Part shown: positions 1 through 23,821 of the stretch, piece by piece
How the letters are laid out: every line of letters starts with the position of its first letter
Numbering within the stretch: position 1 is the first letter of the stretch
NCBI RefSeq assembly: GCF_003334255.1
Contig: NZ_QOWU01000035.1
DNA from: Escherichia coli
GTDB lineage: Bacteria > Pseudomonadota > Gammaproteobacteria > Enterobacterales > Enterobacteriaceae
Reading direction: 5' to 3' (one strand)
Length of the DNA: 55,376 nucleotides
Made by a program: the position numbers and the translations under genes
The notes under the pieces: generated by a model
Seen by the model: only the letters and a program-made list of their open reading frames with translations
What the model was told of the DNA's origin: nothing
Database searches by the model: none

Positions 1-77
1 AGTTATCGTGAGAGTAATTCATCGGCACGTTAAATCATATCAGGCGTAATACCACAACCCTTAAGTTAGCGCTTATG
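1..77 (-). mobile_element. Terminal segment of IS186 (partial; element continues beyond the window start)
   Basis: Reverse complement of 1..77 reads CATAAGCGCTAACTTAAGGGTTG..., which I recall as the 23-bp terminal inverted repeat of IS186 plus adjacent internal sequence; the cheB reading frame is broken exactly at position 77/78. Confidence 0.65.
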
Positions 78-980
78 GGTCCATGCCCCCGCCTGACGCA
101 TCGCCAACATTCCTGCCGCGCCGTCGTTGCCCATGCCGGTCAGGATCACCCCAACCGCATTACGCCCCGCCTGTTTGGCGACAGAATGGAACAACACATC
201 TACCGAAGGCCGATGACGGTTAACCGCCGGGCCATCGTGAATTTTGATTTGATAATTTGCGCCACTACGCGCCAGCTCCATATGCCGATCGCCCGGCGCG
301 ATATAGGCATGTCCCGGCAAGACGCGCTCTCCGTCTTCGGCTTCTTTAACCCCGATCTGGCAAAGCTTATTAAGTCTGTCGGCAAAAGAGCGGGTGAAAC
401 CGGGCGGCATATGCTGGGTAATTAACAGTGCCGGGCTGGAAAGCGGCAACGGTTGCAGTACGTGACGAATTGCCTCAGTTCCACCCGTTGAAGCACCAAT
501 CGCAATCAGTTTTTCAGAACTCAGCAACGGCCCCGCCTTCAGCGTTGTCGGTGCCGACAATGGCTTATGTGCTGCAAGGCTCGCCTTTGCTGCCGTACGC
601 ACCTTTTCAGCAATCATTTCGCTATACGCCAGCATACCTTCGCGAATACCCAGTTGCGGTTTGGTGACAAAATCTATCGCCCCCAGCTCCAGCGCGCGCA
701 GCGTAACTTCTGACCCTTTGCCGGTCAGGGAAGAAACCATCACAACGGGCATTGGACGCAAACGCATTAATTTTTCGAGGAAATCCAGTCCGTCCATCCG
801 CGGCATTTCAACATCCAGCGTCAATACATCGGGATTGAATTTCTTAATCAAGTCACGCGCAACCAGCGGATCAGGCGCGGTCGCCACCATTTCCATGTCG
901 CTATGGCTGTTGATGATTTCTGTCATGATCTGGCGCATCAGTGCCGAATCATCGACAGATAACACCCTGATTTTGCTCAT
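78..980 (-). pseudogene. cheB: Chemotaxis methylesterase CheB, 3'-truncated after codon 301 by the IS186 insertion (the ORF runs into the IS as ...[12 protein letters not shown])
   Basis: Translation [19 protein letters not shown]... matches the CheB receiver and methylesterase domains; canonical CheB is 349 aa, so the last ~48 residues are missing and replaced by 3 IS-encoded codons. Confidence 0.85.
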
Positions 981-982
981 CG

Positions 983-1843
983 TTAATCCTTACTTAGCGC
1001 ATACACCGTCTGACCACGCAGCGTGAAGCGGCGCTCAAGGTGGCTAAAGTTTTCAGAGTGACCCGCAAACAGCAATCCGTCGGGTTTAAGGAGCGGAACA
1101 AAGCGGCGCAAAATCTCCTGCTGGGTAGTTTGATCGAAGTAGATCATGACGTTACGACAGAAGATCGCATCAAACGGCCCCGGCACGGTGTACTGTTTCG
1201 CCAGTAAATTCAGCGGGGCAAAATCAACATAGTTCGCCAGCTCCTGACGCACGCGTACCAGCCCTTCATGCGGTCCCGTCCCTCGCATGAAATACCGTTG
1301 CAGTTGCTGCGGCGTCAGGTTTTTCAACTCTTCATGGCGATAGATACCGCTTCTGGCTTTTTCCAGCACTTCGGTGTCGATATCACTGGCAAACACTTTC
1401 CAGCGTCCGGGCGCGGTGCCCAATGTGTCAGCCAGCGTCATCGCAATGCTGTACGGCTCTTCGCCGGTCGAAGCCGCCGCGCTCCATACGCGATACTCGC
1501 CAGAACGGCGACGTGCGTGATCCGCGAGCAGAGGGAAATGATGTGCCTCACGGAAAAATGCCGTCAGATTCGTGGTCAGCGAATTGATAAACGCCTGCCA
1601 CTCACCGCTGTGCTGATTAGATTCCAGCAAGTTCAGATAATGACCGAAATCCGTCAGTCCCAGTGAACGCAAACGACGAACCAGTCGGTTGTAAACCATG
1701 TCGCGTTTATGGTCAGCCAGAACGATCCCGGCTCGTTGATAGATCAATTGACTTATCCGCCGAAAATGCGCGTCGGAAAGCGCCAGGCGCTCGGTCATCT
1801 GTAACAATAAAGACGTTTGCCCACAGGGCAGAGATGAAGTCAT
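983..1843 (-). CDS. cheR: Chemotaxis protein methyltransferase CheR
   Basis: 286-aa [20 protein letters not shown]...; SAM-dependent MCP methyltransferase; overlaps the cheB start as in the meche operon. Confidence 0.95.
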
Positions 1844-1861
1844 AGCGCCTTCTCAATCACT

Positions 1862-3463
1862 TCAGGATACCACTGGCGCAATTTGTAACTGCGCCGACTC
1901 ATGTCGTGCTACTTCATGTTCTTCAAGGGTAAATACCGCCACACGCGACGAAAGATGGTCGGCCTGATTCGCCAGTTGTTCCGTTGCCACCGCCGCTTCT
2001 TCTACCAGCGAGGCGTTCTGCTGAGTCACCTGATCCATCTGGCTGACAGCCTGTGCAACCTGCTCAATCCCCCGCCGTTGTTCTTCCGACGCCGAAGCAA
2101 TTTCTCCCATAATGTCGTTCACGCGGGTCACCGAACTGACAATATCGGTCATGGTCGCGGCGGCGTTATTCACCAGTTTCGAACCCTGCTGGACACGATT
2201 GACTGACTCTTCGATCAGCCCTTTGATCTCTTTTGCTGCCTGCGCGCTACGGCTGGCAAGATTGCGCACTTCACCTGCCACTACCGCAAAACCACGCCCC
2301 TGCTCTCCGGCGCGAGCCGCTTCCACTGCCGCATTCAGGGCCAGAATATTGGTCTGGAAAGCAATTCCGTCGATAACGCTGATAATGTCGCCAATTTTTT
2401 GCGAGCTGGTGGCGATCTCCTGCATGGTGTGAGTCATGGTACTGACCTGAACACCGCCCGCCTGCGCCGTTGTCGCGGCATTTTTTGCCAGTTCCGACGC
2501 CTGTCGTGCGTTATCGGCGTTTTGCCCTACCGTGGCGGTTAATTGCTCCATACTGGCGGCCGTTTGTGCCAGCGATGCCGCCTGCTGTTCGGTACGACTT
2601 GAGAGATCGTTATTGCCTGCGACAATCTCCGCGATACCAATGTGCATCTCATGGCTTCCCTTACGCACATCACTCACCGTCCCACGCAAAGCCTGCTGCA
2701 TGGTCTTCAGGCTGGCAAAAATGGCGGTGATCTCATTACGACCATATACCGCAATCGGACGCGCCAGATTACCCGCAGCAATGCTGTCAAAATGGCTACC
2801 GATAATGGCCAGTGGTTGAACAATCATCTTGCGCGTCCACCACAGCGCACTGCTGATGTAGATCGCCGCAACAGTAATCATGCTGATAAACACCAGCGCC
2901 GAAATCTGATAGTTACGCTGGCTTTGCGCACTGGCGGCTTCCAGCACATGGTTGATCTCCAGCTGCCAGGCCTCAAAGTTAACGTCAAACGCATTCTGTG
3001 ATCCCTGCACCGGCGCAGTGAGGAAATCCGAAAGTTGATTACTTTCAAGCCAGGTCGCCTGATGTTCGAGATCGTTGTGCCAGCGGGCAAAACTTTTCTC
3101 CGTCTCTTTTTGCAATGCTCTGACGTGCTCGTTGCCCGCAGTCATCGCCATAAAACTTTTAAACAGCGTGGTGGATTGCGTCAGACTGGCGCGCGCCGTC
3201 GTCATCAACGTTTTAATGTCATCCGCCGGATAGCTAAGCGCTGTCAGAGTGCCTGCTTTGTTCAGCGCGGTACTGGCCTGTAACATTACCGCCCGAGTTT
3301 GCGCTAATGCCGCACGTTGCTGATTGCTCTGCTCGACCTGATTCAGTCGTTGCAAATCGTCGCGAAATGCCCAAAAAGACATGCCGTTACTGCCAATCTG
3401 CAAGATCCCGCAGAGAATCAAAATTAAAAACAGCGTGGTCGAAATTCGAATACGATTAAACAT
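1862..3463 (-). CDS. tap: Methyl-accepting chemotaxis protein IV (dipeptide/pyrimidine receptor Tap)
   Basis: ORF trimmed to MFNRIRISTTLFLIL... (533 aa); conserved MCP signalling domain; position between tar and cheR. Confidence 0.92.
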   Translation of the reverse strand: MFNRIRISTTLFLILILCGILQIGSNGMSFWAFRDDLQRLNQVEQSNQQRAALAQTRAVMLQASTALNKAGTLTALSYPADDIKTLMTTARASLTQSTTLFKSFMAMTAGNEHVRALQKETEKSFARWHNDLEHQATWLESNQLSDFLTAPVQGSQNAFDVNFEAWQLEINHVLEAASAQSQRNYQISALVFISMITVAAIYISSALWWTRKMIVQPLAIIGSHFDSIAAGNLARPIAVYGRNEITAIFASLKTMQQALRGTVSDVRKGSHEMHIGIAEIVAGNNDLSSRTEQQAASLAQTAASMEQLTATVGQNADNARQASELAKNAATTAQAGGVQVSTMTHTMQEIATSSQKIGDIISVIDGIAFQTNILALNAAVEAARAGEQGRGFAVVAGEVRNLASRSAQAAKEIKGLIEESVNRVQQGSKLVNNAAATMTDIVSSVTRVNDIMGEIASASEEQRRGIEQVAQAVSQMDQVTQQNASLVEEAAVATEQLANQADHLSSRVAVFTLEEHEVARHESAQLQIAPVVS

Positions 3464-3508
3464 CAACGCTCCCCATCAGGCGGCAATGACCGCGTTAGTA
3501 AATACTCG

Positions 3509-5170
3509 TCAAAATGTTTCCCAGTTTGGATCTTGTTCAGCAATTCGCAGTCGTGGCTGTGCCGGTGGTTGCTCACTGGCAGGACGGGATGGTGTTTGCG
3601 GTTTATTGGTGAGTGGGCTGGCTGCCAGACGAAACGCGGAAACCGCTTGCGTTAAACGACTAGCCTGTTCTTCCAGCGCAGCTGCAGCGGCAGCTGATTC
3701 CTGCACCAGCGATGCGTTCTGTTGCGTGACGCGATCCATTTCCGAAACCGCCAATGCGACTTGATCGATGCCACGGCTCTGTTCATCCGATGCCGATGCA
3801 ATCTCGCCCATAATGTCAGTCACGCGAGTGACAGCATTGACGATATTGTTCATTGTTTCCCCGGCGCTTTCGACCAGCACCGAACCGGTATCAACGCGCG
3901 AGACGGAGTCTTCAATGAGAGCTTTGATCTCTTTTGCCGCCTGGGCGCTACGACTGGCAAGATTACGCACTTCGCCCGCCACCACGGCAAAACCACGGCC
4001 CTGTTCACCCGCTCGCGCGGCTTCAACCGCGGCATTCAGCGCGAGGATATTAGTCTGGAAGGCAATACCGTCGATAACGCTGATAATGTCGGCAATTTTC
4101 TTCGAACTATCGGCGATCTCATGCATCGTTTTCACTACGCCATCCACCACTTTGCCGCCGTGCTGGGCGGTGTCGGAGGCACTTTGCGCCAGTTGCGAGG
4201 CCTGGCGGGCGTTATCGGCGTTTTGCTTCACTGTCGCGGTGAGCTGCTCCATGCTGGCGGCAGTTTCTTCCAGCGCGGATGCCTGCTGTTCAGTACGGGA
4301 GGAAAGATCGGTGTTGCCCGCCGCAATTTCACGGGTACCGGCATAGATGGCATCTGAACCTTCGCGGACATGAGTGACGGTGTCAGTCAAAGAGCGTTGC
4401 ATATGTGAAACGCTCTGCGCCAGGTCGCCCATTTCACTGCGCCCGTCAATGGTCAGGGTATTCGCCAGGTTACCACCGGCGATTTCGCGAATGTGAGCAA
4501 TAATTTTTGCCAGCGGTGTAAGCAACATACGGCGAATGCCGTACCACGCCACCAGCAGAATCAATACCACCACCAGCGCGATAACCGCCAGTTGCCACTG
4601 GGCAAATCGGTAATCATCTGCGTTGTCAGTGACGATATCGCGATACAGTTTTTCACTGCTGAGGGCGTACTGAGCAAACGCTTCGCCCATTGCATTTTGC
4701 ATTCCCTGGGTTGGCTGAGCGAAATAAGCTCCAGTATTGCCATAATCAAGATAATCAATCAGTTCAGTTAATGCTGTGTGATAGTTTTTATATTTTTCAT
4801 CAATATTACGACTGGTAGCGACCATTTCAGGTAACGGTGCCATACTTTTGAATTTTTTATAATGAGTCGCGGCCTGGGCCAATGTTTTCCTGGCGCTATC
4901 GAGCAATTCAACTTTGGCATTACTTTGTTGATTGGAGGAATCCATCATCATTCGCACCGCTGAACGACTCAGGTTAATGCGCGTTTGCAGCATTAAATCC
5001 CAGGTTGACGTCAGCTCGCCCTGCTGTTCCCGTAATTGATTGGAAACCACAAAGCTCTTCTGGCTATGGTGAAGGGAAGAAAAAAACAGACTGCCGGAAA
5101 TAAGCTGTAACAGTGCGAATACCCCCAGCACCATTACCAACAGCGTGACTACGCGGATACGGTTAATCAT
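3509..5170 (-). CDS. tar: Methyl-accepting chemotaxis protein II (aspartate/maltose receptor Tar)
   Basis: ORF trimmed to [18 protein letters not shown]... (553 aa); C-terminal NWETF pentapeptide present. Confidence 0.93.
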
Positions 5171-5201: not shown

Positions 5202-5228
5202 TTATCGGCAAGGAAGGGGGAAACTTTA
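5202..5228 (-). promoter_or_regulatory. Sigma-28 (FliA) class 3 promoter for the tar-tap-cheRB operon
   Basis: Minus strand reads TAAAGTTT-N11-GCCGATAA, a perfect match to the sigma-28 consensus, about 30 bp upstream of the tar start. Confidence 0.75.
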
Positions 5229-5254
5229 TTGCTGATGCCACCCGCCGCGAAATT

Positions 5255-5288
5255 GAAATAAAAAACCCGATGCGCAGATCATCGGGTT
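5255..5288 (-). terminator. Intrinsic terminator downstream of cheW (end of motA-motB-cheA-cheW operon)
   Basis: GC stem CCCGAT/ATCGGG followed by a U-run on the minus-strand transcript. Confidence 0.6.
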
Positions 5289-5314
5289 CATTTCAATTGA
5301 GGAAATCAGGAGAA

Positions 5315-5818
5315 TTACGCCACTTCTGACGCCGCGCTATCTAACAGCGCCATCTCTTCGCTGTTCAGCAGTTTTTCGATGTTCACCAGAATCAACATCC
5401 GGTCGCCCAGTGCGCCCAGTCCAGTGAGATATTCTGTTGAAAGCGTCACGGCAAATTCCGGTGCCGGACGAATTTGCTCCGCCGTCAATGAAAGCACATC
5501 TGAAACGCCGTCAACCACGATGCCGACCACCCGCTGTCCGAGATTCAGGACGATAACTACCGTGTTGTCGTTATAGTCCACATCCACCTGGCTGAACTTA
5601 ATTCGTAAGTCAACAATCGGCACAATAACGCCGCGCAGATTCGTGACGCCTTTGATAAACGCTGGCGTGTTCGCAATCCGTGTTACCTGATCGTAGCCAC
5701 GGATCTCCTGCACTTTCAGGATATCAATACCGTACTCTTCATCACCAAGGGTAAATACCAGAAATTCCTGGCCTGACGGCTCGCTGGCCAGCTTTGTTAC
5801 ATTCGTCATACCGGTCAT
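5315..5818 (-). CDS. cheW: Chemotaxis coupling protein CheW
   Basis: 167-aa [36 protein letters not shown]... Confidence 0.96.
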
Positions 5819-5838
5819 ATTGTTACCTTTTTACTCAT

Positions 5839-8730
<2,892 letters not shown>

Positions 8731-8734
<4 letters not shown>

Positions 8735-9618
8735 GCTTCCTCGGTTGTCGTCTGTTGTTGCGGATTTTTCACCGCACGCACATGCTCTTCCAGTTCAATA
8801 AACGACGGACGTTCGCTGGAATAGAGCGTTTTGCGACCAAACTCAACGGCGATAGGCGGTGCGTAACCGTTCAGATTAGAAAGCAGTGTGACTTTGACGC
8901 ACTGCATCATTTTGCTGGTTTCGGCGCTTTTCTGACGTAAAACACTCGCTAATGGGGAAATAAATCCGTAAGCCAATAAAATGCCGAGGAAAGTCCCCAC
9001 CATCGCATGTGCGATAAGCGCCCCCAGCTCGGCGGCAGGACGATCGGCTGAACCTAACGCGTGAACGACCCCCATTACAGCCGCGACAATACCAAACGCC
9101 GGAAGTGAGTCCCCGACCAGCGCCAGACTGTTCGCCGGGACTTCTGCCTCGCTTTCGTGCGTCTCAATCTCTTCATCCATCAGGGCTTCGATTTCGAAGG
9201 TGTTCATGTGACCGCTGATAATCAGGCGCAGATAATCGACGATAAAATCAAGCATGACGCTATCCGCGAGGATGCGTGGGTAGCTGGCGAAGATCTCGCT
9301 CTCACGGGGATTTTCAATATCACGTTCCAGCGAAAACATCCCCATCTGCCGCGATTTCGCCATCAACCGATAAAGCAGAGCCAGCAGATCCATATACATT
9401 GCTTTGGTGTATTTGGAGCGACGAAACAGCAACGGCAGCGCCTTCAGCGTGCCTTTAATCGCTTTGCCATTATTGCCGACGATAAACGACCCAATCCCTG
9501 CACCGGCAATAATCACCAGTTCAGCGGGTTGATAGAGTGCTCCAAGGCTTCCACCGGTCATCAAATAACCGCCGAAAACTGTACCGAGAACAACCAGGTA
9601 ACCTAATAAGATAAGCAC
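8731..9618 (-). CDS. motA: Flagellar motor stator protein MotA
   Basis: 295-aa [37 protein letters not shown]...; 4-nt overlap with motB. Confidence 0.96.
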
Positions 9619-9684
9619 GACATCATCCTTCCACTGTTGACCATGACAGGATGTTCAGTCGTCAGGCGTTAACGCGCGATTGGG

Positions 9685-9719
9685 GCAAAAAAAAGCAGCG
9701 GTACGTCGTTACCGCTGCT
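9685..9719 (-). terminator. Intrinsic terminator downstream of flhC
   Basis: Stem GCAGCGGTA/TACCGCTGC followed by an 8-nt U-run on the minus-strand transcript, 25 bp after the flhC stop. Confidence 0.65.
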
Positions 9720-9744
9720 GGAATGTTGCGCCACACCGTATCAG

Positions 9745-10323
9745 TTAAACAGCCTGTACTCTCTGTTCATCCAGCAGTTGTGGGATAATATCGGCAGGAT
9801 TCTGGGAAAGTTTACGTCTTTTTACTGCCCGGGATGGCGGTTGACATAAGCTGCAGGCAAAGCTGCCAACAGGCTGGTGAGCGTGGGTAATAAAATTGCC
9901 GCCGCAGCAGTTGCAGCTGGAAAGTTGCAGTAATCCACTTTCAACAAACCGCACCAATGTCCAGGCACGGGTTAATGCCAGCAGCGGTCCTTCTTCTGCT
10001 TGCGGGCACTGTTCAAGGTATAAACGGTAGGCTTTGATCACCGCGTCGACGCCATTACACAAACCGGTTTTCAGTAAAAACTGCCATGCATTACAGAACA
10101 TCGAAGCATGAACGTTTTGTTCCCAGGTCATAAACCAGTCGGTTGAGAATGGCAGCATGCCTTTCGGCGGTGGGCTTCCGCGCAGTTCTTTATAAAGTTT
10201 TATCAGGCGTCCGCGACTTAACTGTGTTTCGCTTTCAAGCATCTGCAAAAGAGCGCCCAAGGTGATCAATTCCATTGCCAGCTGAATATCCCGCGCTTCC
10301 TGAACAATGCTTTTTTCACTCAT
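9745..10323 (-). CDS. flhC: Flagellar master regulator subunit FlhC
   Basis: 192-aa [27 protein letters not shown]...; Cys-rich zinc site present. Confidence 0.96.
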
Positions 10324-10325
10324 GA

Positions 10326-10676
10326 TCAGGCCCTTTTCTTGCGCAGCGCTTCTTCAGGCTGATTAACATCATTCAGCAAGCGTGTTGAGAGCATGATGCC
10401 GGTATGAATTTGCTGGAGATCGTCAACGCGGGAATCTTGCGTCAACTGAGTAATCGTCTGGTGGCTGTCAAAACGGAAGTGACAAACCAGCTGATTGGTT
10501 TCTGCCAGCTTAACCATTTGCGGAAGAGTCAGTGCCGCTAATGTTGTCGCCATTTCTTCATTTATGCCGAGACGAAACATAGCGGACGCTTTGTCCTGAA
10601 CAATCAGACGCTGTGCAAGTAGTAAATATGACAAGTTGATGTCATAAATGTGTTTCAGCAACTCGGAGGTATGCAT
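10326..10676 (-). CDS. flhD: Flagellar master regulator subunit FlhD
   Basis: ORF trimmed to [24 protein letters not shown]... (116 aa). Confidence 0.94.
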
Positions 10677-11455
10677 TATTCCCACCCAGAATAACCAACT
10701 TTATTTTTATGCGGTTTCACCGCACCCCGTGATGTCGCCGGGAAGCCCCGGTAAAAAATAATTAGCATTAGAATAGTTGCGATAAGCTGCAATAAGCAGA
10801 GCCACCTTTTTGGTTTAATAAGTCCTTACAAATAGAAGGGGGTCTTTACACTTATCTAAGATTTTTCCTAAATCGACGCAACTGTACTCGTCACTACACG
10901 CACATACAACGGAGGGGGGCTGCGATTTTCAATAATGCGTGATGCAGATCACACAAAACACTCAATTACTTAACATAAATGTATAAGTCATACTTTTGTT
11001 TTGGGTGTATTTCAATCTGTTAAAAAGTTTTTCGCTACGCTAGCAAGCAAAAATGAAACAGGAATAATCGAAATGGGATGTTGCGCACAGTTAAAATAAC
11101 TCACCGTAAATAATCATCTGCTATAAATAATCACTTTCATGCAATACCAGATAAGCTATTTTTAAACAGACACTTACCGCACAACAAACTAATTAAATAC
11201 AAAGAAAGGCAACAATCAACTTTATGTTAATAAAATGTTTTGCATATATTAACCACTTGTTTAATGCGGAGAATCAGTACATTATTTTCTTATAATTACA
11301 GTTGAAATCATATGATCACCGAGAGTGATTGATTAATTGTCTTTACTAATAATCAGACTAATATTTACCTGTTTGACTGAGTTGGGATTGCGTCGTTTCT
11401 CCATTAGGAGTAAAGCTTTAATGTCACCTGAAGTTCACAGAATAAGGAACAGGTT
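10677..11455 (-). promoter_or_regulatory. flhDC class 1 promoter, long 5'UTR and upstream regulatory region (shared divergent region with uspC)
   Basis: About 780 bp of AT-rich non-coding DNA upstream of flhD with no ORF of note; established as a multi-regulator input region. Confidence 0.7.
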
Positions 11456-11884
11456 ATGAGCTATAGCAATATTCTTGTCGCTGTTGCGGTTACACCGGAA
11501 AGTCAGCAACTGCTGGCAAAAGCGGTATCTATCGCCAGGCCAGTAAAGGGACACATCAGTTTAATTACTCTCGCTTCCGACCCGGAAATGTACAATCAAT
11601 TAGCTGCGCCGATGCTTGAAGATTTACGCAGCGTGATGCAGGAAGAAACGCAAAGCTTTCTTGATAAGTTAATTCAGGATGCGGGGTATCCCGTTGACAA
11701 GACGTTTATTGCCTACGGTGAGTTAAGCGAACATATTCTGGAAGTATGTCACAAACATCATTTCGATTTGGTGATTTGCGGTAATCACAATCACAGTTTC
11801 TTTTCGCGAGCATCCTGCTCGGCGAAAAGAGTGATTGCCTCAAGTGAGGTCGATGTGCTGTTAGTTCCACTTACGGGAGATTAA
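11456..11884 (+). CDS. uspC: Universal stress protein C
   Basis: 142-aa ORF MSYSNILVAVAVTPESQQLLAKAVSIARP...; UspA-family fold; position between flhD and otsA. Confidence 0.9.
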   Translation: MSYSNILVAVAVTPESQQLLAKAVSIARPVKGHISLITLASDPEMYNQLAAPMLEDLRSVMQEETQSFLDKLIQDAGYPVDKTFIAYGELSEHILEVCHKHHFDLVICGNHNHSFFSRASCSAKRVIASSEVDVLLVPLTGD

Positions 11885-11890
11885 CCGCTC

Positions 11891-15243
<3,353 letters not shown>

Positions 15244-15257
15244 CATACTCTCCTTAC

Positions 15258-16772
15258 TCAGGCAACTGCCTGGCTGACTTTAGGCATCGCAAGGCTCAGT
15301 GCCTGACGCTCATCTGCCTGCTCGTGTAACAATTCACCGGCGATTTCACCTTCGCGCATCACCACAATCCGGTCGGCAACGCCGAGGACTTCAGGTAAGT
15401 CGCTGGAGGCAAACAGCACCGCCACACCCTGCGCCGCCAGCGCATAAATTACGTTATATATTTCGTGCTTAGCGCCAACATCAATGCCGCGCGTAGGTTC
15501 ATCCAGCAAAATGACCTTCATCTCTTCCGATAACCAGCGGCCCAGAATGGCTTTTTGCTGATTTCCGCCTGAGAGATTCATGATCAGTTGCTCAGCGCCC
15601 GGCGTTTTGATGTTGAGCGAACGAATGTGGTGATCGGCATTGTTTTCTTCCCAACCGTTGTTGATTACACAACCGCCGAGCACATGTTTACGTCTGGCAC
15701 TGATGTTGATATTGTCGCGAACGGAGTGCACGGGAATAATGCCTTCCGCTTTGCGATCTTCCGGGCAGAGCATCATGCCTGCGGCAATGGCGTGGCTCGG
15801 TTTACGAATATCGATCGGCTGTTGGTCGATATAAACCTGACCGGCGGTGATTTGCGTCCCGCCAAACAAGCCTTTCATTAATTCGCTACGCCCCGCCCCT
15901 ACCAGACCAAACAGCCCAACAATTTCACCACTGCGAACCGCCAGACTTATTGGCGTACGCACGCCTGGTGCTTTCACAGCATCAAGACGCAGGCGCTCCT
16001 CGCCATAACTACGAGGTTGCCAGCCGTAGATATCGCCAATGTCGCGCCCGACCATCGCCTGCACCAGCGCGTCGTGGTCAACCTGCTGCATATCGGTAAA
16101 GGTTTTGACATAACGTCCATCTTTAAAGACAGTGATGGCATCGCTGAGGGCAAATATTTCTTCCATACGGTGAGAAACGTATAAGATCACCCGCCCCTCT
16201 TTTCGCAGTTCACGAATAACGCGGAAAAGATTGTCGATTTCGCGGGCAGAAAGGGAGCTGGTTGGCTCATCAAAGGCGATAATTTTAGCGTTACGCGCCA
16301 GCGCCTTGGCGATTTCAACCATCTGCCACTGACCAATGGAGAGATATTTCAGCGGCGTGTCCGGGTCAATATCCATACCAAGATGTTTAAGTTGTAAACC
16401 CGCCTCATAATTCAGCAATGAGCGATTCACAATGCCGCCTTTATGCGGCAGCTGGCCGAGATAGATGTTTTCCGCGACGGTCATTTCCGGCACGAGATGC
16501 AGTTCCTGGTAAATAATCGCCACACCCGCGTTAAGTGCTGCGGTCGTGTCGGAAAAGGACATTTCCTGCCCATTAATCACTACAGAACCCGTGGTTGGCG
16601 CATAGTTGCCGCTGAGGATTTTTAAGAGAGTTGATTTTCCTGCGCCATTTTCACCCATCAACGCATGAACCTGACCGGCATAGCAGTCAAAACTAATATC
16701 CGTCAGCGCCTTAACGCCGGGAAACGTTTTACCGATGCCGCGAAATGAGAGATACGGGGTAGACTGTTGCAT
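15258..16772 (-). CDS. araG: L-arabinose ABC transporter ATP-binding protein (duplicated ABC domains)
   Basis: ORF trimmed to [23 protein letters not shown]... (504 aa); two Walker A motifs. Confidence 0.94.
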
Positions 16773-16841
16773 AACGTCTCCGTGAATCACTGGTCGTTCA
16801 CACCCCCTCTGCATCATGCAGAGGGGAATTTTTCCGGCAAA

Positions 16842-17831
16842 TTACTTACCGCCTAAACCTTTTTTCTCCAGTTCTTCTTTAAAGTTGTCACGCGTGATCA
16901 GCACCACGTCGGTAACTTCGGTAAATTTTGGCGGTTCAACGTCTTTTGCTACCCAGTTGTAAAGCATTTCGCTGGATTTATAGCCATGTACGTCCGGGCT
17001 TGGCAGCAGGGAACCGTAGAAGCCGGTTGCCTGTGCTTTAGACAGTTCGCTCACCGCATCCACACCGTTAATGCCAATGCCGATGATATCGGCAGCTTTA
17101 AAGCCCTGACCTTCCGTCGCGCGTACGCCGCCCAGCACGGTGCTGTCGTTCATACCGACGATCAGCCAATGTTTAACTTCCGGATGTTGAACCAGCATTG
17201 AGTTGGCAGCGTCAAATGCCCCCGGGATGTCGTTAGATTTGGTAGGTACCTGATAAATTTGTTTTTCCGGGAATCCGGCCGCTTTCAGCGCATCCATAGA
17301 ACCCGTTGTACGGCGACGTGCCGTATCCAGTTCGTTGGCGGTAATCGCCATCACCGCGCTTTCTTTGACATCCCAGCCACGTTTCTGCATCTCTTTATAC
17401 AGTTCCTGACCCTGACGTTCGCCAATTTTAGTCGCCGCCATCATCACCAGCGGAACGGTATCCATTGGCTTACCTTTGGCGTTAACAAACTGGTCATCCA
17501 CGGCAATGACTTTCATATCGTAGCCACGCGCTTTCGCGACGATGGCAGAGCCGAGTTTGGGGTCCGGAGTACAAATAACGAAACCTTTTGCGCCACTGGC
17601 AGCCAGGCTGTCGATCGCGTTCAATGTTTTTTCGCCATCCGGCACGGCAATCTTAATAACCTCAAACCCTAAATCCTTCCCGGCTTTATCGGCAAACTTC
17701 CATTCGGTCTGGAACCACGGCTCTTCCGGTTGCTTCACCAGAAAACCGAGCTTCAGGTTCTCCGCCATAGCGGATTGTGACATAACGGCTGCCAGACCAA
17801 TGGCTGCCAGGGCTTTAGTAAATTTGTGCAT
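16842..17831 (-). CDS. araF: L-arabinose-binding periplasmic protein
   Basis: ORF trimmed to MHKFTKALAAIGLAAVMSQSAMAENLKLGF... (329 aa); signal peptide. Confidence 0.94.
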   Translation of the reverse strand: MHKFTKALAAIGLAAVMSQSAMAENLKLGFLVKQPEEPWFQTEWKFADKAGKDLGFEVIKIAVPDGEKTLNAIDSLAASGAKGFVICTPDPKLGSAIVAKARGYDMKVIAVDDQFVNAKGKPMDTVPLVMMAATKIGERQGQELYKEMQKRGWDVKESAVMAITANELDTARRRTTGSMDALKAAGFPEKQIYQVPTKSNDIPGAFDAANSMLVQHPEVKHWLIVGMNDSTVLGGVRATEGQGFKAADIIGIGINGVDAVSELSKAQATGFYGSLLPSPDVHGYKSSEMLYNWVAKDVEPPKFTEVTDVVLITRDNFKEELEKKGLGGK

Positions 17832-18627
17832 GGTTCTCTCCAGCTTTAGTGTCGTTTTGTGTAGGGCAAAAACGAATGACATTCGTTAAATTAATCGGAA
17901 AACAAAGCATTACCTTTTAACTAAAAGATAAGTGACCGTGTTGACATAGTTTTAGCGAGAAATTAATTCTCCATAGGAGAGCAATATCACATCGCAGAAT
18001 TACAGTGAGAACGTGCATAAATTTAGCGGGAAAAGACATAAGGGAAAGCCAATTTGTCAGACAAATTGTCGAATGCACAGCAGATTAATCCATAAGATTA
18101 GCCTGGAAATCCTTGTTGTCTTTGGTACCCATGCGGGATGTCTTCTTTTTAACCAGTCAATAGGCCGCATTACCTGGCGTTGAGTTTTTGAAATGGTGTA
18201 ATAACCGCAACTCAAAGATGTGGAAAATGCACGCCATTCATTTCGCCATTAATTATCACTGTGCTCATTAATTAACAGAACACGTATAATGAGAGCCATC
18301 TCGCAAAAATGAAAAAACCTTTTATAAAATCATCATTTCATCATGAATTCAAATTCATTGATTAATATCAACAAGATACAAAAAGCACTATCATTAAAAT
18401 TCATTGCAGTTACATTGATTTCATCAATGAAATGTAAAAATATATAAACTTGATGATTTAAGCATTTTCTTATACCCGTTCAGACGTTATTCTTATTTCA
18501 GATCATCGTCAGAATTGACTCCACGATCACATTTCGGACCGGCAGAAAGGAATTATTCTGCAAACAGTAATTATGGTGTTTTGATTTATCTTGCACCTCT
18601 CCACTTCTGGATATAAGGATATTAGGT

Positions 18628-19131
18628 ATGGCAACCGCTGGAATGCTTCTCAAACTCAACTCTCAAATGAACCGCGAGTTTTACGCATCCAATCTCTACC
18701 TTCACCTGAGTAACTGGTGTTCTGAACAGAGTCTGAACGGCACCGCCACTTTCCTTCGCGCCCAGGCACAGAGTAATGTGACCCAAATGATGCGCATGTT
18801 TAACTTTATGAAGAGTGTCGGCGCTACCCCCATCGTTAAAGCCATTGATGTTCCCGGTGAAAAACTGAACTCTCTGGAAGAACTGTTCCAAAAAACGATG
18901 GAAGAATACGAGCAACGTTCTAGTACGTTGGCACAGTTAGCCGATGAAGCGAAAGAACTGAATGATGATTCAACCGTCAATTTCCTGCGCGATCTGGAAA
19001 AAGAACAGCAGCATGATGGTCTGTTGCTGCAAACCATTCTTGATGAAGTGCGCAGTGCGAAACTTGCGGGTATGTGCCCTGTGCAGACCGACCAACATGT
19101 TCTGAATGTCGTGTCACACCAGCTGCATTGA
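18628..19131 (+). CDS. ftnB: Ferritin-like protein FtnB
   Basis: 167-aa [41 protein letters not shown]...; ferritin fold; preceded by about 750 bp of AT-rich intergenic DNA. Confidence 0.9.
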
Positions 19132-19174
19132 TCATCATCGGCGCTAATGCATTGCGCCGATGAAGGTTTTGAGA

Positions 19175-19211
19175 AACCGCTGCCTCATCTGTTTGAAGCA
19201 GCGGTTTTTTT
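19175..19211 (+). terminator. Intrinsic terminator downstream of ftnB
   Basis: Stem CCGCTGC/GCAGCGG followed by TTTTTTT, preceded by a second hairpin CATCGGCGC/GCGCCGATG. Confidence 0.6.
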
Positions 19212-19461
19212 AATGGGATTCACCCTGTGGGGTAAACTTGAGTTCAATCAGCGCGATGGCTTTTTGGATTGCCCGCATGGTGACCGGGTCTGCGGCGGCG
19301 GGATGGTTACTAAAGTCGATATTCTTCAGCTGACTGGACATTTTTTCACGAACTTCAACGGGCGCGATTACATCGAGAACATCCAGAATTTGTTTGATAA
19401 CCAACTGGCAAGCAACCACATCAGAAACCAGTTCCTGATCGGCATTCAGCGGCTGGGACAT
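19210..19461 (-). CDS. yecJ: DUF2766-family small protein YecJ
   Basis: 83-aa [53 protein letters not shown]... Confidence 0.85.
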
Positions 19462-19546
19462 CGTAAACTCCTGATAGCATTTTGAAAGCCGTTATAGTAG
19501 CGACTTCACATCTTCAGCGATAGTCACATCCACCGTCATCAGGACA

Positions 19547-19574
19547 CAAAAAAACCTGCCGGAGCAGGTTTTTT
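19547..19574 (-). terminator. Bidirectional intrinsic terminator immediately downstream of azuC
   Basis: Stem CCTGC/GCAGG flanked by an A-run on one side and a T-run on the other (AAAAAAACCTGCCGGAGCAGGTTTTTT). Confidence 0.6.
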
Positions 19575-19575
19575 G

Positions 19576-19662
19576 TTATCGGAACATATTGCCTGGCGGT
19601 ACGTCTTTGAACGTCTTGCAATAGTTATTGAACATACTTTTCAGGATTTTGCGCAGTTTCAT
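19576..19662 (-). CDS. azuC: Small membrane-associated protein AzuC (28 aa; transcript formerly annotated as sRNA IsrB)
   Basis: I translated the minus strand by hand: ATGAAACTGCGCAAAATCCTGAAAAGTATGTTCAATAACTATTGCAAGACGTTCAAAGACGTACCGCCAGGCAATATGTTCCGATAA gives MKLRKILKSMFNNYCKTFKDVPPGNMFR; too short to appear in the ORF track. Confidence 0.85.
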   Translation of the reverse strand: MKLRKILKSMFNNYCKTFKDVPPGNMFR

Positions 19663-19744
19663 CGCGGCACTCCGACCATTTGTTATACAGGTGTTATTGT
19701 CTTTGCGCTTATAATATGACAACCATCACAAAAATCAATCTTTA

Positions 19745-19760
19745 TGTGATGCAAATCACA
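19745..19760. promoter_or_regulatory. Candidate CRP binding site (TGTGA-N6-TCACA) upstream of azuC
   Basis: Perfect palindromic half-sites TGTGATGCAAATCACA about 85 bp upstream of the azuC start codon. Confidence 0.5.
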
Positions 19761-19924
19761 TAAATACCCCTTTAATGTTATAAAAATGATAATCAAAAAA
19801 CAACCCCCCCATTTCTGACACCTACAGATGGCAAGAAATAGCGCCTGCCAGGCGTCTTTTCCGGCCATTGTCGCAGCGCTGTAACGCGTAAAATAGTGCT
19901 TTCTCTTACTCTTCTGGCTGGACC

Positions 19925-20248
19925 ATGAGACTTCTGATTCTGACTCTTTCATTAATAACGCTGGCGGGGTGTACGGTTACTCGCCAGGCCCATGTGAGCG
20001 AAGTTGACGCGGCAACAGGTATTGTACGGTTGGTTTATGACCAGGCTTTTTTGCAGCATGCCCATACCGATCATTATGTCAGTCGCGGGATCGCCGATCG
20101 CGCATGCCAGCAGGAAGGCTATACCCACGCGATCCCCTTTGGTCAGCCAGTAGGCAACTGTAGCCTTTTTGCGGGTTCCTTATGTTTGAATACGGAATTC
20201 ACTTTGTCATATCAGTGCCATCATTCCGCCTTCCCTGTCTTTCTCTAA
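19925..20248 (+). CDS. yecR: Predicted lipoprotein YecR
   Basis: 107-aa ORF MRLLILTLSLITLAGCTVTRQ... with lipobox LAGC. Confidence 0.85.
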   Translation: MRLLILTLSLITLAGCTVTRQAHVSEVDAATGIVRLVYDQAFLQHAHTDHYVSRGIADRACQQEGYTHAIPFGQPVGNCSLFAGSLCLNTEFTLSYQCHHSAFPVFL

Positions 20249-20419
20249 ATGTTTTAATCAGCGAGGGGGATCTTCGCTGATTAAATAAATAGCGGTAATG
20301 CGTTTTATTCCCATTCGTATTTTTAATAATTGAAGTTTATATTTTACCTTTTGCAAATAATAAAATAACAAATTATAGTGACGCCACAGCAACAAATATA
20401 ACCTTTGTGGAGCACTATC

Positions 20420-20917
20420 ATGCTGAAACCAGAAATGATTGAAAAACTTAATGAGCAGATGAACCTGGAACTGTACTCTTCACTGCTTTATCAGCAAATG
20501 AGCGCCTGGTGCAGCTATCATACCTTCGAAGGTGCTGCCGCGTTCCTGCGCCGTCACGCCCAGGAAGAGATGACGCATATGCAGCGTCTGTTTGATTATC
20601 TGACTGATACCGGCAATTTACCGCGTATTAATACCGTTGAATCTCCGTTTGCTGAATATTCCTCACTTGATGAATTATTCCAGGAAACCTATAAACACGA
20701 ACAATTAATCACCCAGAAAATTAACGAACTGGCTCATGCAGCAATGACCAATCAGGACTACCCAACATTTAATTTCCTGCAATGGTATGTTTCTGAGCAG
20801 CATGAAGAAGAGAAACTGTTCAAATCGATTATTGATAAATTAAGCCTGGCAGGCAAAAGCGGCGAAGGTCTGTATTTTATCGACAAAGAACTCTCTACCC
20901 TCGACACACAAAACTAA
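20420..20917 (+). CDS. ftnA: Ferritin (iron storage) FtnA
   Basis: ORF trimmed to [43 protein letters not shown]... (165 aa). Confidence 0.95.
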
Positions 20918-20924
20918 TGCTCTC

Positions 20925-20950
20925 CGGCGGCAGGTTTCTGCCGCCGTTTC
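20925..20950. terminator. Hairpin / probable bidirectional terminator between convergent ftnA and yecH
   Basis: 9-bp GC-rich stem CGGCGGCAG/CTGCCGCCG with short T-tracts on either side. Confidence 0.4.
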
Positions 20951-20953
20951 AAA

Positions 20954-21193
20954 TCAGTGACGGCAAATCTTACTCTGATCGGTCGAAAAACCTTCTTCTG
21001 AAGGTATAAATTTGCCTTTTGCTGCCAGAAACGCCACCAGCTCTCCCGCTGTCATCCCTTCTGCCGAGCAGGTGTGAAAACGTGCCTGTTCACCAAAACG
21101 CGCTTTAATCGCAGCTTCCAGACTGGCATGCGTATATTGCTCGCCTGATTCAATCATCATATTTAACACTTCATGACCGTGAATAGAGTCCAT
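20954..21193 (-). CDS. yecH: DUF2492-family protein YecH
   Basis: 79-aa ORF MDSIHGHEVLNMMIESGEQYTHASLEAAIKARFGEQARFHTCSAEGMTAGELVAFL... Confidence 0.85.
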   Translation of the reverse strand: MDSIHGHEVLNMMIESGEQYTHASLEAAIKARFGEQARFHTCSAEGMTAGELVAFLAAKGKFIPSEEGFSTDQSKICRH

Positions 21194-21384
21194 CGTTCCT
21201 CCTCAAAAAAAAGCCTAGCGTAGCGATTGCCGCTTATGAAGACTTTGCGCCAGCGCAGGACTGAATGCTTTTTATTGTACATTTATATTTACACCATATG
21301 TAACGTCGGTTTGACGAAGAAGCCGTTATGCCTTAACCTGCGCCGCAGATATCACTCATAAAGATCGTCAGGACAGAAGAAAGC

Positions 21385-22596
21385 GTGAAAAACAGAACCC
21401 TGGGAAGTGTTTTTATCGTGGCGGGAACCACAATTGGCGCTGGCATGCTGGCAATGCCGCTGGCTGCGGCCGGTGTTGGTTTTAGCGTTACGTTAATCTT
21501 GTTGATTGGGCTTTGGGCGTTGATGTGCTACACGGCGCTATTACTGCTGGAGGTGTACCAGCATGTTCCGGCAGATACCGGTCTGGGCACGCTGGCAAAA
21601 CGCTATCTGGGACGCTACGGTCAATGGCTGACGGGCTTCAGTATGATGTTCTTAATGTATGCTCTGACTGCGGCATACATCAGCGGTGCCGGTGAATTGT
21701 TGGCCTCCAGCATCAGCGACTGGACAGGTATTTCAATGTCGGCAACCGCTGGCGTGCTGTTGTTCACTTTTGTTGCCGGTGGCGTGGTTTGTGTTGGAAC
21801 ATCGCTGGTCGATTTATTTAACCGTTTTCTGTTCAGCGCCAAAATTATTTTTCTGGTGGTGATGCTGGTATTGCTGCTACCGCATATTCACAAAGTGAAT
21901 CTTTTAACCCTGCCGTTGCAACAGGGGCTGGCACTGTCTGCAATCCCGGTGATTTTTACGTCGTTTGGTTTTCACGGTAGCGTGCCGAGTATTGTCAGCT
22001 ATATGGATGGCAACATTCGTAAGCTACGCTGGGTGTTTATAACCGGTAGTGCGATCCCCCTGGTGGCATATATTTTCTGGCAGGTGGCGACGCTTGGCAG
22101 CATTGATTCAACAACCTTTATGGGATTGCTGGCTAATCATGCCGGATTAAACGGGCTGTTACAGGCGTTACGCGAAATGGTGGCCTCTCCGCATGTTGAG
22201 CTGGCAGTGCATTTATTTGCTGATTTAGCCCTCGCCACGTCATTTCTCGGCGTTGCGTTAGGCTTATTTGATTATCTGGCTGATTTGTTTCAGCGTTCAA
22301 ATACCGTTGGTGGAAGATTGCAAACTGGTGCAATTACCTTTCTGCCGCCGTTGGCGTTTGCACTGTTTTATCCACGAGGATTTGTGATGGCGCTGGGTTA
22401 CGCCGGTGTGGCGCTGGCGGTACTGGCATTGATTATCCCTTCGCTGTTGACCTGGCAAAGCAGAAAGCACAATCCTCAGGCGGGTTACCGGGTCAAAGGT
22501 TGTCGTCCGGCGCTGGTGGTGGTGTTTCTCTGTGGTATTGCTGTGATTGGCGTGCAATTTTTGATTGCGGCAGGGTTGTTACCAGAAGTGGGGTGA
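21385..22596 (+). CDS. tyrP: Tyrosine-specific transport protein (HAAAP family)
   Basis: 403-aa ORF with GTG start, (V/M)[32 protein letters not shown]... Confidence 0.93.
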
Positions 22597-22657
22597 TTAG
22601 ATAGCCTCAAATTCCTTATTGGGTGCCAGAATTAACGCTGACACCCAATTTGGCCTC

Positions 22658-23323
22658 TTAATGCAGGCAGCACTGCTTAAATTTCTTACCACTACCGCAC
22701 GGGCAAGGATCGTTACGCCCCGGTTTCTCTTCTGCTTTGATCGGTTGCTGAACAGCTTTTTCCTGCGGATGCGCCATCCAGTACGCATGTAGATCAAGCG
22801 CCGCCAGTCGAATGGCATCTACGCTCTCTTCAAACGCTTCTGGCGACATTTTCTCTACCCGCTCGAAGTTTTCCTCAGTACCGTGCAGCGCAATCGCTTC
22901 CAGCGCTGGTTTTAACGAATCGGGCAACGTTGACCAGTCAGAAAGTGCCACGCCCCGCATATAGCCAAAGCACCACTCCTCAACAATCGTCAGCTCGCTG
23001 CCATCAACTTCTCGCAAGCCGAATAACGGCTCAAACTGCTCCGGGAATTCGTTCAGACGCTCTGCGGTATCGGCCATATGTTGAAAAGCCAGGTTCATAA
23101 AGCGCGTCATCTCTTTCTCTGACGCCCAGCGCGGCACATAGTCAGCCCCACCCCACACGGCAACCAGCCACTGTTCCGGTTCAATCTCTTGCGGAGAACT
23201 CAACACCGCCGTCAATAAACCGTCCAGCTCCGCCACATCAAGGATGGCGTGGTCAGTGTTGTATTTGGTCAGAATATCGTCCAGCCATTCCAACTCACTT
23301 TCGTTTAACGGTCCCGTTTTCAT
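22658..23323 (-). CDS. yecA: UPF0149-family protein with C-terminal SEC-C zinc motif
   Basis: 221-aa ORF ending ...[19 protein letters not shown] (SEC-C metal-binding motif). Confidence 0.88.
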
Positions 23324-23451
23324 ACGCTTTTCCTTGTGGATCTCAACTCGCCAGCACCTATCTTACATGCCGGTCCGTATCAGAGATACTTTTTGAGTGG
23401 CTTTGCCGGTGATTAAAAATTAAGGAGGGTGTAACGACAAGTTGCAGGCAC

Positions 23452-23474
23452 AAAAAAACCACCCGAAGGTGGTT
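23452..23474 (-). terminator. Intrinsic terminator at the end of the glyW-cysT-leuZ tRNA operon
   Basis: Minus-strand RNA folds as ACCACC-UUCG-GGUGGU followed by UUUUUUU. Confidence 0.6.
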
Positions 23475-23518
23475 TCACGACACTGCTTATTGCTTTGATT
23501 TTATTCTTATCTTTCCCA

Positions 23519-23605
23519 TGGTACCCGGAGCGGGACTTGAACCCGCACAGCGCGAACGCCGAGGGATTTTAAATCCCTTGTGTCTACCGATTCCACCATC
23601 CGGGC
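23519..23605 (-). tRNA. leuZ: tRNA-Leu (anticodon UAA)
   Basis: Minus strand reads GCCCGGATGGTGGAATCGGTAGACACAAGGGATTTAAAATCCCTCGGCGTTCGCGCTGTGCGGGTTCAAGTCCCGCTCCGGGTACCA: cloverleaf with long variable arm and encoded CCA. Confidence 0.92.
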
Positions 23606-23617
23606 TCGGGAAGAAAG

Positions 23618-23691
23618 TGGAGGCGCGTTCCGGAGTCGAACCGGACTAGACGGATTTGCAATCCGCTACATAACCGCTTTGTTAACGCGCC
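23618..23691 (-). tRNA. cysT: tRNA-Cys (anticodon GCA)
   Basis: Minus strand reads GGCGCGTTAACAAAGCGGTTATGTAGCGGATTGCAAATCCGTCTAGTCCGGTTCGACTCCGGAACGCGCCTCCA. Confidence 0.92.
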
Positions 23692-23745
23692 AAATTCTTC
23701 AGGCCTTTCAACCAGACATCCGCTTGACGCCGATGTCTTTTAAAC

Positions 23746-23821
<76 letters not shown>

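Follow-up and report, generated by a model that had tools for sequence, protein, structure and literature searches.

The tandem chemoreceptor genes tar and tap of Escherichia coli: identical hairpin tips on diverged DNA and rare natural hybrids joined at short exact matches

The window, i.e. the whole analysed stretch of 55,376 nucleotides from Escherichia coli (contig NZ_QOWU01000035.1), contains two adjacent genes for methyl-accepting chemotaxis proteins (MCPs), which lie on the minus strand in direct orientation and are separated by a 45-bp spacer. The gene tar (3509..5170) encodes MCP II, the aspartate/maltose receptor, and tap (1862..3463) encodes MCP IV, the dipeptide receptor. Both assignments are based on the open reading frames, NCBIfam, Pfam, and RefSeq, which uses the names tar and tap in a 100%-identical genome. 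Tar (553 aa) belongs to the NCBIfam equivalog NF011622 with 1199.7 bits (cut-off 900; full length, 1-553), and Tap (533 aa) belongs to NF007309 with 1180.6 bits (cut-off 903; full length, 1-533). Both proteins have the Tar/Tsr-type transmembrane architecture consisting of a four-helix-bundle TarH domain, a HAMP domain, and a signalling domain. In Pfam, these are found at residues 1-169, 212-262, and 325-482 (MCPsignal, 5e-62) of Tar and at residues 1-167 (2e-42), 209-260, and 323-480 (MCPsignal, 2e-56) of Tap. The translation of tar ends with the pentapeptide NWETF (codons at 3512-3526), the tether for CheR and CheB that marks high-abundance receptors, whereas that of tap ends with IAPVVS and lacks NWETF, as expected of a low-abundance receptor (PMC4692393). 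Enterobacterial receptors have been reported to fall into a single length class (PMC4742279).

The succession cheW, tar-tap-cheR-cheB on a single strand identifies the locus as the meche operon; cheB of the window is truncated by the end of an IS at position 76/77. In genes, order, lengths, and domain architecture the pair corresponds to tar-tap of the meche operon (tar-tap-cheRBYZ) of E. coli K-12, from which it differs in nothing of substance. At the level of nucleotides, tar-tap matches K-12-type records with 98.9% and strain G1/2 with 100% identity, and the proteins presumably differ from those of K-12 by a few amino-acid substitutions. Thus, tar-tap of the window is a textbook gene pair that is already known. 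Strain G1/2 is 100% identical to the window over positions 77-5170, which include both genes, and 99.2% identical over positions 5391-23488, and it carries an island that is absent from the window.

A preliminary description of this DNA had drawn attention to a stretch of 46 residues common to Tap and Tar. This stretch is present in both proteins (positions 2222-2359 and 3923-4060), and the longest common substring of the translations is longer still, comprising 56 residues (DIISVIDG...KEIK) encoded by tap codons 359-414 (2222..2389, minus strand) and tar codons 361-416 (3923..4090, minus strand). It covers the hairpin-tip region of the signalling domain, which harbors trimer contacts as well as CheA/CheW determinants and is nearly invariant (PMC4692393). 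The flanks of this run had been called near-identical, which is an overstatement, as the windows of 30 residues on either side are 57-87% identical. Over their entire length, Tar and Tap share 47% amino-acid identity, with about 20% in the periplasmic domain. The run is conserved in further receptors: Tsr contains an exact core of 35 residues and is 95% identical across the 56 residues, and among the matches listed in a scan of bacterial genomes with the peptide pattern DGIAFQTN the reach extends to the Burkholderiales.

At the level of DNA, the near-identity ascribed to the signalling segments is not found: tar and tap share no tract of identity longer than about 30 bp, the longest exact matches being 24, 18, and 16 nt. 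Within the 56-residue run, nucleotide identity is about 82-85% and synonymous sites are saturated (pS 0.59, dS about 1.1). The best in-register windows of 150 and 300 nt are 84.7% and 78% identical, respectively. There are four shared 21-mers and no shared k-mers between tar and tap at k ≥ 25. In a null model, in which the same two proteins are encoded by independently drawn codons, the longest run is expected to be 15 ± 3.6 nt and a run of at least 24 nt has a probability of about 0.02, so that the 24-nt tract exceeds chance by no more than a small margin. Overall in-register identity is 0.59 vs. 0.55 in the null model, which is a slight excess. The 16 in-register tracts of at least 8 nt hold 19% of the possible positions. 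The 24-nt match lies at 2367..2390 in tap and at 4068..4091 in tar (tar nt 1080-1103), and the 18-nt match, the second-longest, at 2508..2525 and 4209..4226 (tar nt 945-962). Identity of the Tar and Tap proteins thus implies neither identity of their DNA nor gene conversion nor a risk for assembly.

Gene conversion had been suggested for these tracts, and ongoing conversion, i.e. concerted evolution of the adjacent copies, would indeed maintain an identical stretch. The adjacent position and direct orientation of the genes are in its favor, as are the nominal excess of the 24-nt tract over the codon-resampling null and the hairpin of the Enterobacter sp. Ag1 pair, in which nucleotide identity is slightly raised, with 0.80 vs. 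0.72-0.76 for cross-genome paralogues. However, a dS of about 1.1 for tar-tap in the run is the same as for unlinked paralogues (tar-tsr 1.4, tar-trg 1.2, tap-aer 0.96), and exact tracts of equal or greater length occur in unlinked pairs (28 nt in tar-tsr, 29 nt in tap-aer, and 23 nt in tar-trg, vs. 24 nt in tar-tap). Tar is also nearer to the unlinked Tsr than to the adjacent Tap, with 84% amino-acid and 76% nucleotide identity in the cytoplasmic domain compared to 72% and 69%. The unlinked E. coli receptors Tsr, Trg, and Aer thus resemble the tar-tap pair in hairpin core, synonymous divergence, and lengths of exact tracts.

The comparison across genera, which comprises the three tar-tap loci of Citrobacter, Enterobacter, and Yersinia among the matches listed by the DGIAFQTN scan, argues in the same direction; tar-tap loci of other Escherichia species were not among these matches. 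E. coli tar and the upstream gene of Citrobacter are 96% identical in amino acids and 82% in nucleotides, E. coli tap and the downstream gene 83% and 75%, while paralogues within a genome reach 72-73% and 67-73%. Orthologues of tar and tap from Citrobacter and Enterobacter cluster by gene and not by genome, grouping by gene holds in three genera, and in E. coli and Citrobacter paralogues within a genome show no greater similarity than those between genomes. Neither low-dS tracts nor a likeness of silent sites within genomes, as expected for concerted evolution, were found, and maintenance of the stretch by ongoing conversion is extremely improbable. In view of the mild excess of the 24-nt tract and of in-register identity over the null model, conversion between tar and tap that is old or very short stays just conceivable in a strict sense. 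It is next to impossible that tar and tap are the products of a recent duplication with the identical run as residual similarity. The tandem layout, the common domain architecture, and the collinear alignment would fit such an origin, but the low overall and periplasmic identity and the saturated synonymous sites do not. In addition, a pair of the same order, with NWETF in the upstream and no NWETF in the downstream product, is already present in Citrobacter, Enterobacter, and Yersinia, so that the duplication is old.

Because their synonymous sites have diverged to saturation, tar and tap evolve independently without detectable conversion. Purifying selection on the hairpin tip, with its trimer-of-dimers contacts and the determinants by which CheA and CheW are bound, would keep the 56 residues near invariant throughout the family, and selection is the probable cause of the conservation of the tip. 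Taken as a whole, an old duplication, identity of the tip by selection, no detectable conversion, and rare deletions between short matches very probably account for the features of this pair.

Such deletions were also anticipated in the preliminary description, which regarded the tracts as substrates for recombination fusing tar and tap. Hybrids of this kind do exist, and their crossovers lie in tracts of 24, 18, 11, and 8 nt; the substrates are thus short exact matches of 8-24 nt and not near-identical segments. A search with a synthetic fusion was used for their detection. Genomes with both genes are 100% covered at about 93% identity in this search, because the in-register alignment crosses the junction. 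Accordingly, hybrids were called from a single-piece span of 1,608 bp with at least 96.5% identity, followed by direct verification. Among 5,426 complete genomes of E. coli, three (strains ET474, GCF_041320105.1; PEC389, GCF_056989455.1; ETEC4088, GCF_030013145.1) carry a single in-register tar'-'tap hybrid, in each case as one gene of 1,608 bp between cheW and cheR; such hybrids are also present in many draft assemblies. The switch between the parental sequences is clean and is located inside the 24-nt tract in WP_096259879.1 and inside the 18-nt tract in WP_098723133.1. Two further classes cross over in an 11-nt tract (P0026, locus L099; 2580..2590 in tap and 4281..4291 in tar, tar nt 880-890) and in an 8-nt tract (P0023/P0025, locus L098; 2553..2560 in tap and 4254..4261 in tar, tar nt 910-917). 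These two classes come solely from short-read (Logan) assemblies. All four crossovers fall within the 16 in-register tracts of at least 8 nt, the junctions lie within codons 294-368, and NWETF is missing from every hybrid allele.

In total, the hybrids of E. coli/Shigella fall into at least four junction classes. A tar-tap hybrid was found once in another enterobacterium, and a fusion of tar to the tail of tap is present on at least 15 contigs, some of them named Escherichia fergusonii. The reciprocal tap'-'tar hybrid, the product of an unequal exchange, was not found in the 5,426 genomes; the top matches of this search were unrelated small deletions. With 1049 and 1004 bits, the hybrids pass the Tar equivalog cut-off of 900, so that automatic annotation calls them plain 'tar'. 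Strains with a tether-less Tar and without Tap are thus hidden in tables of gene presence.

The public hybrids might also be assembly collapses of two real genes, as they look exactly like a collapse across a shared segment and as short-read assemblies are the only source for two of the four classes. A risk of collapse in short-read assemblies had been raised for tar and tap as well. A collapse is to be expected if the genes share k-mers at the k of the assembler (21-127) or windows of read length with about 95% identity or more. The absence of common k-mers at k ≥ 25 and an identity of 85% in the best windows of 100-150 nt do not support this concern, and junctions of 8-24 nt are too short for de Bruijn or overlap graphs. 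The predicted risk of collapse for tar/tap is therefore negligible. Furthermore, three of the hybrids belong to assemblies at the 'complete genome' level, and identical copies of the hybrid proteins appear on 71 and on 28 contigs that stem from independent assemblies (NCBI, ENA, and Logan), with the same neighboring genes on every contig examined. Two strains that differ in both host and country share an identical locus of 4.6 kb. It is thus very unlikely that the hybrids are artefacts of assembly. The contig numbers probably reflect clonal spread and not the rate of events.

Exact matches of 8-24 nt between tar and tap still act occasionally as end-points of deletions; the two copies of each are directly oriented, in a common reading register, and spaced 1,701 bp apart. 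Such a deletion leaves one in-frame gene with the sensing half of Tar and the signalling half of Tap, while tap and the NWETF tether are lost. For unlinked receptors the situation is different: as Tsr, Trg, and Aer are not encoded adjacent to each other, a short-homology deletion between their genes would take out essential segments of the chromosome. Shen and Huang reportedly determined a minimal efficient processing segment of about 23-27 bp for E. coli in 1986. The longest uninterrupted identity between tar and tap, 24 nt, would lie at the lower limit of this range, and all others have at most 18 nt. Judged from the tract lengths, the deletion may be RecA-dependent at the lower limit of length, or it may proceed by replication slippage or short-homology illegitimate recombination. 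The crossovers in the shorter tracts suggest a RecA-independent route. The mapped junctions represent a small natural data set on the minimal match length at which E. coli can undergo a deletion of 1.7 kb.

Comparable hybrids are known from the laboratory. Those of Slocum and co-workers (1987) are said to have arisen by deletion between the homologous C-terminal coding regions, and the work of Weerasuriya and co-workers (1998) reportedly identified the cytoplasmic domain of Tap as a poor generator of the clockwise signal. Laboratory tar-tap hybrids likewise combine N-terminal sensing by Tar with C-terminal signalling by Tap (Slocum, Halden & Parkinson 1987, J Bacteriol 169:2938; Weerasuriya, Schneider & Manson 1998, J Bacteriol 180:914), and PMC2229510 cites both studies in a passage on chimeras that join closely related chemoreceptors and are functional. 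In contrast, the present hybrids are natural alleles of wild isolates, with junctions in exact tracts of 8-24 nt outside the linker region. Within the set of papers searched by text, neither the phrase 'tar-tap fusion' nor 'tar-tap hybrid' was found. Cells with a hybrid would be expected to possess an aspartate/maltose receptor without a tether and to lack dipeptide taxis. That some hybrid alleles persist because they are advantageous, rather than as neutral gene loss, is a tentative and rather doubtful idea; if true, this combination would re-tune adaptation and receptor stoichiometry.

Loss of tap is much more common by another route. In passages of PMC3559539 and PMC12623472, Lane et al. 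2006 and Borziak et al. 2013 are cited for the loss of Tap in B2/uropathogenic E. coli. This reported loss in phylogroup B2/UPEC is matched by the absence of a functional tap, with tar retained, in about 20% of the complete E. coli genomes, the likeness lying in tap loss itself. An origin of this common loss from tar-tap recombination was ruled out, as the deletion is internal to tap and bounded by 8-nt repeats. It removes 1,374 bp between two copies of the direct repeat CCTGATTC, one near the 5' end of tap (3337..3344) and the other, the right-hand copy in gene orientation, at 1963..1970, and leaves a remnant of about 228 bp.

The tandem chemoreceptor genes tap (MCP IV; 1862-3463, 533 aa) and tar (MCP II; 3509-5170, 553 aa) are encoded on the minus strand of the window between the E. 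coli chemotaxis gene cheR (983-1843, minus strand) and cheW (5315-5818, minus strand), which is followed by cheA, motB, and motA. Both proteins consist of TarH, HAMP, and MCPsignal domains. The open reading frames, the scores for the NCBIfam Tap (1180.6 bits, cut-off 903) and Tar (1199.7 bits, cut-off 900) equivalogs, and the annotation as tap (MCP IV) and tar (MCP II) in three complete E. coli genomes with 100% identity to 1862-5170 confirm the names and coordinates assigned in the preliminary description. Between cheW and tar, Rfam predicts a C0465 sRNA that runs opposite to the operon (5218-5295, plus strand; 111.6 bits, gathering score 40). At the left end of the window, cheB (minus strand) lacks its 3' end. 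The first 76-79 nt (window 1-76) match not cheB but the end of an IS4-family element, which is IS421 in strain G1/2, and the cheB reading frame is interrupted after about codon 300 of 349, with the ORF terminating in ...AGAWTHKR. This junction at about position 77 is absent from 5,426 complete genomes, in which the best matches all begin at window 77. A disrupted cheB would abolish normal adaptation.

The stretch of 46 residues reported to be identical in Tap and Tar is present in both proteins and is part of a longer identical run of 56 residues (DIISVIDG...AAKEIK; Tap 359-414, window 2222-2389; Tar 361-416, window 3923-4090). The flanks, which had been regarded as near-identical, are merely similar (57-87% identity in 30-residue windows), with 47% identity over the whole proteins and about 20% in the periplasmic domain. 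In the DNA of the identical run, the two genes differ at about half of the codons and are 82-85% identical by nucleotide, with a synonymous-difference proportion of 0.59 (dS about 1.1). The best 150-nt in-register window reaches 84.7% identity. Near-identity of the DNA is thus contradicted by the exact matches, none of which exceeds about 30 bp despite the protein identity: the longest comprises 24 nt (2367-2390 = 4068-4091), followed by 18 nt (2508-2525 = 4209-4226) and 16 nt, and the genes share four 21-mers. When both proteins were held fixed and codons were resampled from the genes' own usage, the longest run was 15.2 +/- 3.6 nt, with P(>=24) of about 0.02.

The proposed gene conversion between the two genes is rejected on three grounds. 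Firstly, dS in the identical run is saturated to a similar degree in the unlinked pairs tar-tsr (1.4), tar-trg (1.2), and tap-aer (0.96). Secondly, adjacency has not produced longer exact tracts, as these reach 28 nt for tar-tsr, 29 nt for tap-aer, and 23 nt for tar-trg; in the cytoplasmic domain, Tar shares 84% of its amino acids and 76% of its nucleotides with the unlinked Tsr, compared to 72% and 69% with the adjacent Tap. Thirdly, the tandem pair is also found in Citrobacter werkmanii, Enterobacter sp. Ag1, and Yersinia aldovae, and the cytoplasmic domains cluster gene-wise across species. E. coli tar is 96% (aa) and 82% (nt) identical to the upstream gene of Citrobacter and E. coli tap 83% and 75% identical to the downstream gene, while paralogues inside one genome show 72-73% and 67-73% identity. 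The pentapeptide NWETF terminates the upstream but not the downstream gene in all four species. These comparisons indicate that the duplication is old and that the copies evolve independently. In Enterobacter sp. Ag1, nucleotide identity of the tandem genes in the hairpin region is 0.80, compared to 0.72-0.76 for cross-genome paralogues, which could reflect local conversion or just shared codon usage.

The 56-residue run corresponds to the signalling domain's hairpin-tip region, which is nearly invariant and contains the trimer-of-dimers contacts and the determinants of CheA and CheW binding (PMC4692393). Tsr contains an exact copy of its 35-residue core, and identity to Tar/Tap over the 56 residues amounts to 95% for Tsr, 86-88% for Trg, and 80% for Aer. 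When 100,000 bacterial species were scanned for the 8-residue pattern DGIAFQTN, some of the matches listed were as distant as Burkholderiales. Because of this shared core, the wide spread of the pattern, and the binding roles of the tip, purifying selection would be the simple explanation for its identity in Tar and Tap.

Natural fusions of the two genes do occur. A search of complete E. coli genomes with a synthetic in-register tar5'-tap3' query revealed a single 1,608-bp gene separating cheW and cheR in 3 of 5,426 genomes (ET474, PEC389, and ETEC4088). Site-by-site parent assignment gave clean switches: in the hybrid of ET474 and PEC389, tar-type sequence extends to nt 1079 and is replaced by tap-type sequence from nt 1104; in that of ETEC4088, the corresponding limits are nt 944 and nt 963. 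The intervals are exactly the 24-nt and the 18-nt tract, respectively. The two longest tracts are therefore those used by both classes in complete genomes. The exact hybrid proteins are encoded in 71 and 28 contigs from NCBI, ENA, and Logan assemblies, with the context cheA-cheW-hybrid-cheR-cheB in every contig examined (24 per protein). A protein search with one hybrid yielded two further in-register classes, one crossing over in an 11-nt tract (tar nt 880-890), the other in an 8-nt tract (tar nt 910-917). All four junctions lie inside the 16 in-register tracts of at least 8 nt, which make up about 19% of possible positions. The reciprocal tap'-'tar product was not found among the 5,426 complete E. 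coli genomes. Since the hybrids score 1049 and 1004 bits for the Tar equivalog, above its cut-off, they are annotated as plain tar. Accordingly, the suggested deletion fusing tar and tap is borne out by natural hybrids, but its substrates are matches of 8-24 nt and not near-identical tracts. Collapse of the two genes in short-read assemblies is not realistic, and the hybrids are unlikely to be artefacts of this kind, because no k-mers are shared at k>=25 and identity across read lengths is at most 85%; at the assembly level, they recur in complete genomes and in many independent assemblies.

As tar and tap are direct repeats in the same codon register with a spacing of 1,701 bp, deletion between matched short tracts would result in an in-frame gene. 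Its product would join the sensing, transmembrane, and HAMP regions and the first methylation helix of Tar to the hairpin, second helix, and tail of Tap. Efficient RecA-dependent exchange needs about 23-27 bp. With tracts of 8-24 nt being at or below this length, slippage or short-homology illegitimate recombination appears at least as likely as a RecA-dependent route. Such hybrids would be expected to retain aspartate and maltose sensing and to lose dipeptide taxis, and since they lack the NWETF tether, adaptation would rely on Tsr in trans; these predictions draw on PMC4692393 and on what Weerasuriya et al. 1998 reportedly found.

Other fusions were encountered as well. Another enterobacterium encodes a 535-aa Tar/Tap hybrid (P0084; about 71% identity to the E. 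coli hybrid) that switches parents within the same identical run and is followed by a cheR-like gene, its sole source being a 2.4-kb Logan contig. A 519-521 aa 'Tar' (P0072/P0073, named Escherichia fergusonii) follows tar to about codon 516 and ends with the last six tap codons (TAPVVS). It lacks NWETF, no separate tap is present, cheR follows directly, and fimbrial usher/SCPU genes are located upstream in place of cheW. This fusion type, found in at least 15 contigs and a 74-member cluster, may be typical of E. fergusonii. Longer Tar-then-Tap chimeras with an out-of-register switch and a partly duplicated cytoplasmic domain (P0017, 771 aa; P0018, 688 aa; P0027, 656 aa; P0028, 680 aa), each from 1-2 contigs, could represent either genuine illegitimate deletions or artefacts.

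An intact tar-tap pair is present in 4,322 of the 5,426 complete genomes, and about 1,050-1,100 (~20%) have a shorter locus with intact tar and a 1,374-bp deletion within tap, bounded by two CCTGATTC repeats (1963-1970 and 3337-3344). The annotation treats the tap remnant as a pseudogene of a 'Tar ligand binding domain-containing protein'. This deletion, which is not a tar-tap exchange, is probably the known Tap loss of B2/uropathogenic E. coli, as published according to passages of PMC3559539 and PMC12623472 citing Lane 2006 and Borziak 2013. Complete genomes also contain further structural variants of the locus (L006, L008, L009, and L007). These comprise an in-frame 222-bp deletion in tar (window equivalent about 3790-4011), two distinct in-frame deletions of 81 bp in tap at imperfect short repeats (about 2492-2578), and an IS1-bounded deletion extending leftwards from about 2274, which has removed the 3' part of tap, cheR, and downstream genes and connects the locus to argS. 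Previous work has established the gene pair and its paralogy, the conservation of the signalling domain, and the tap loss of B2 strains, as well as functional Tar/Tap chimeras according to a passage of PMC2229510 that refers to Krikos 1985, Slocum 1987, and Weerasuriya 1998. The sole addition is a list of natural fusion alleles with their junctions; a phrase search for tar-tap fusions had no match in the searchable literature, which leaves out key older papers.

Relative to sequenced strains, the window is a mosaic. It is 100% identical to G1/2 at 77-5170 and 99.2% at 5391-23488, and 23400-47000 is 100% identical to strain MLI023K1. At 23488-23821 and beyond, where tRNA-Leu(taa), tRNA-Cys, and tRNA-Gly are encoded (23519-23821, minus strand), G1/2 carries an island of about 30 kb without counterpart in the window, comprising integrases, a type I restriction-modification system, and an MZA anti-phage system split by IS421. 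According to the annotation of the closest genome, the yedF-fliE interval (about 40800-44300) contains a truncated SOS-response peptidase gene, an IS200/IS605 transposase (window ORF 41522-2091), ybcM, ybcL, and emrE. In K-12, the latter three belong to the DLP12 prophage region, and the segment appears to be a small insertion or rearrangement within the flagellar region.
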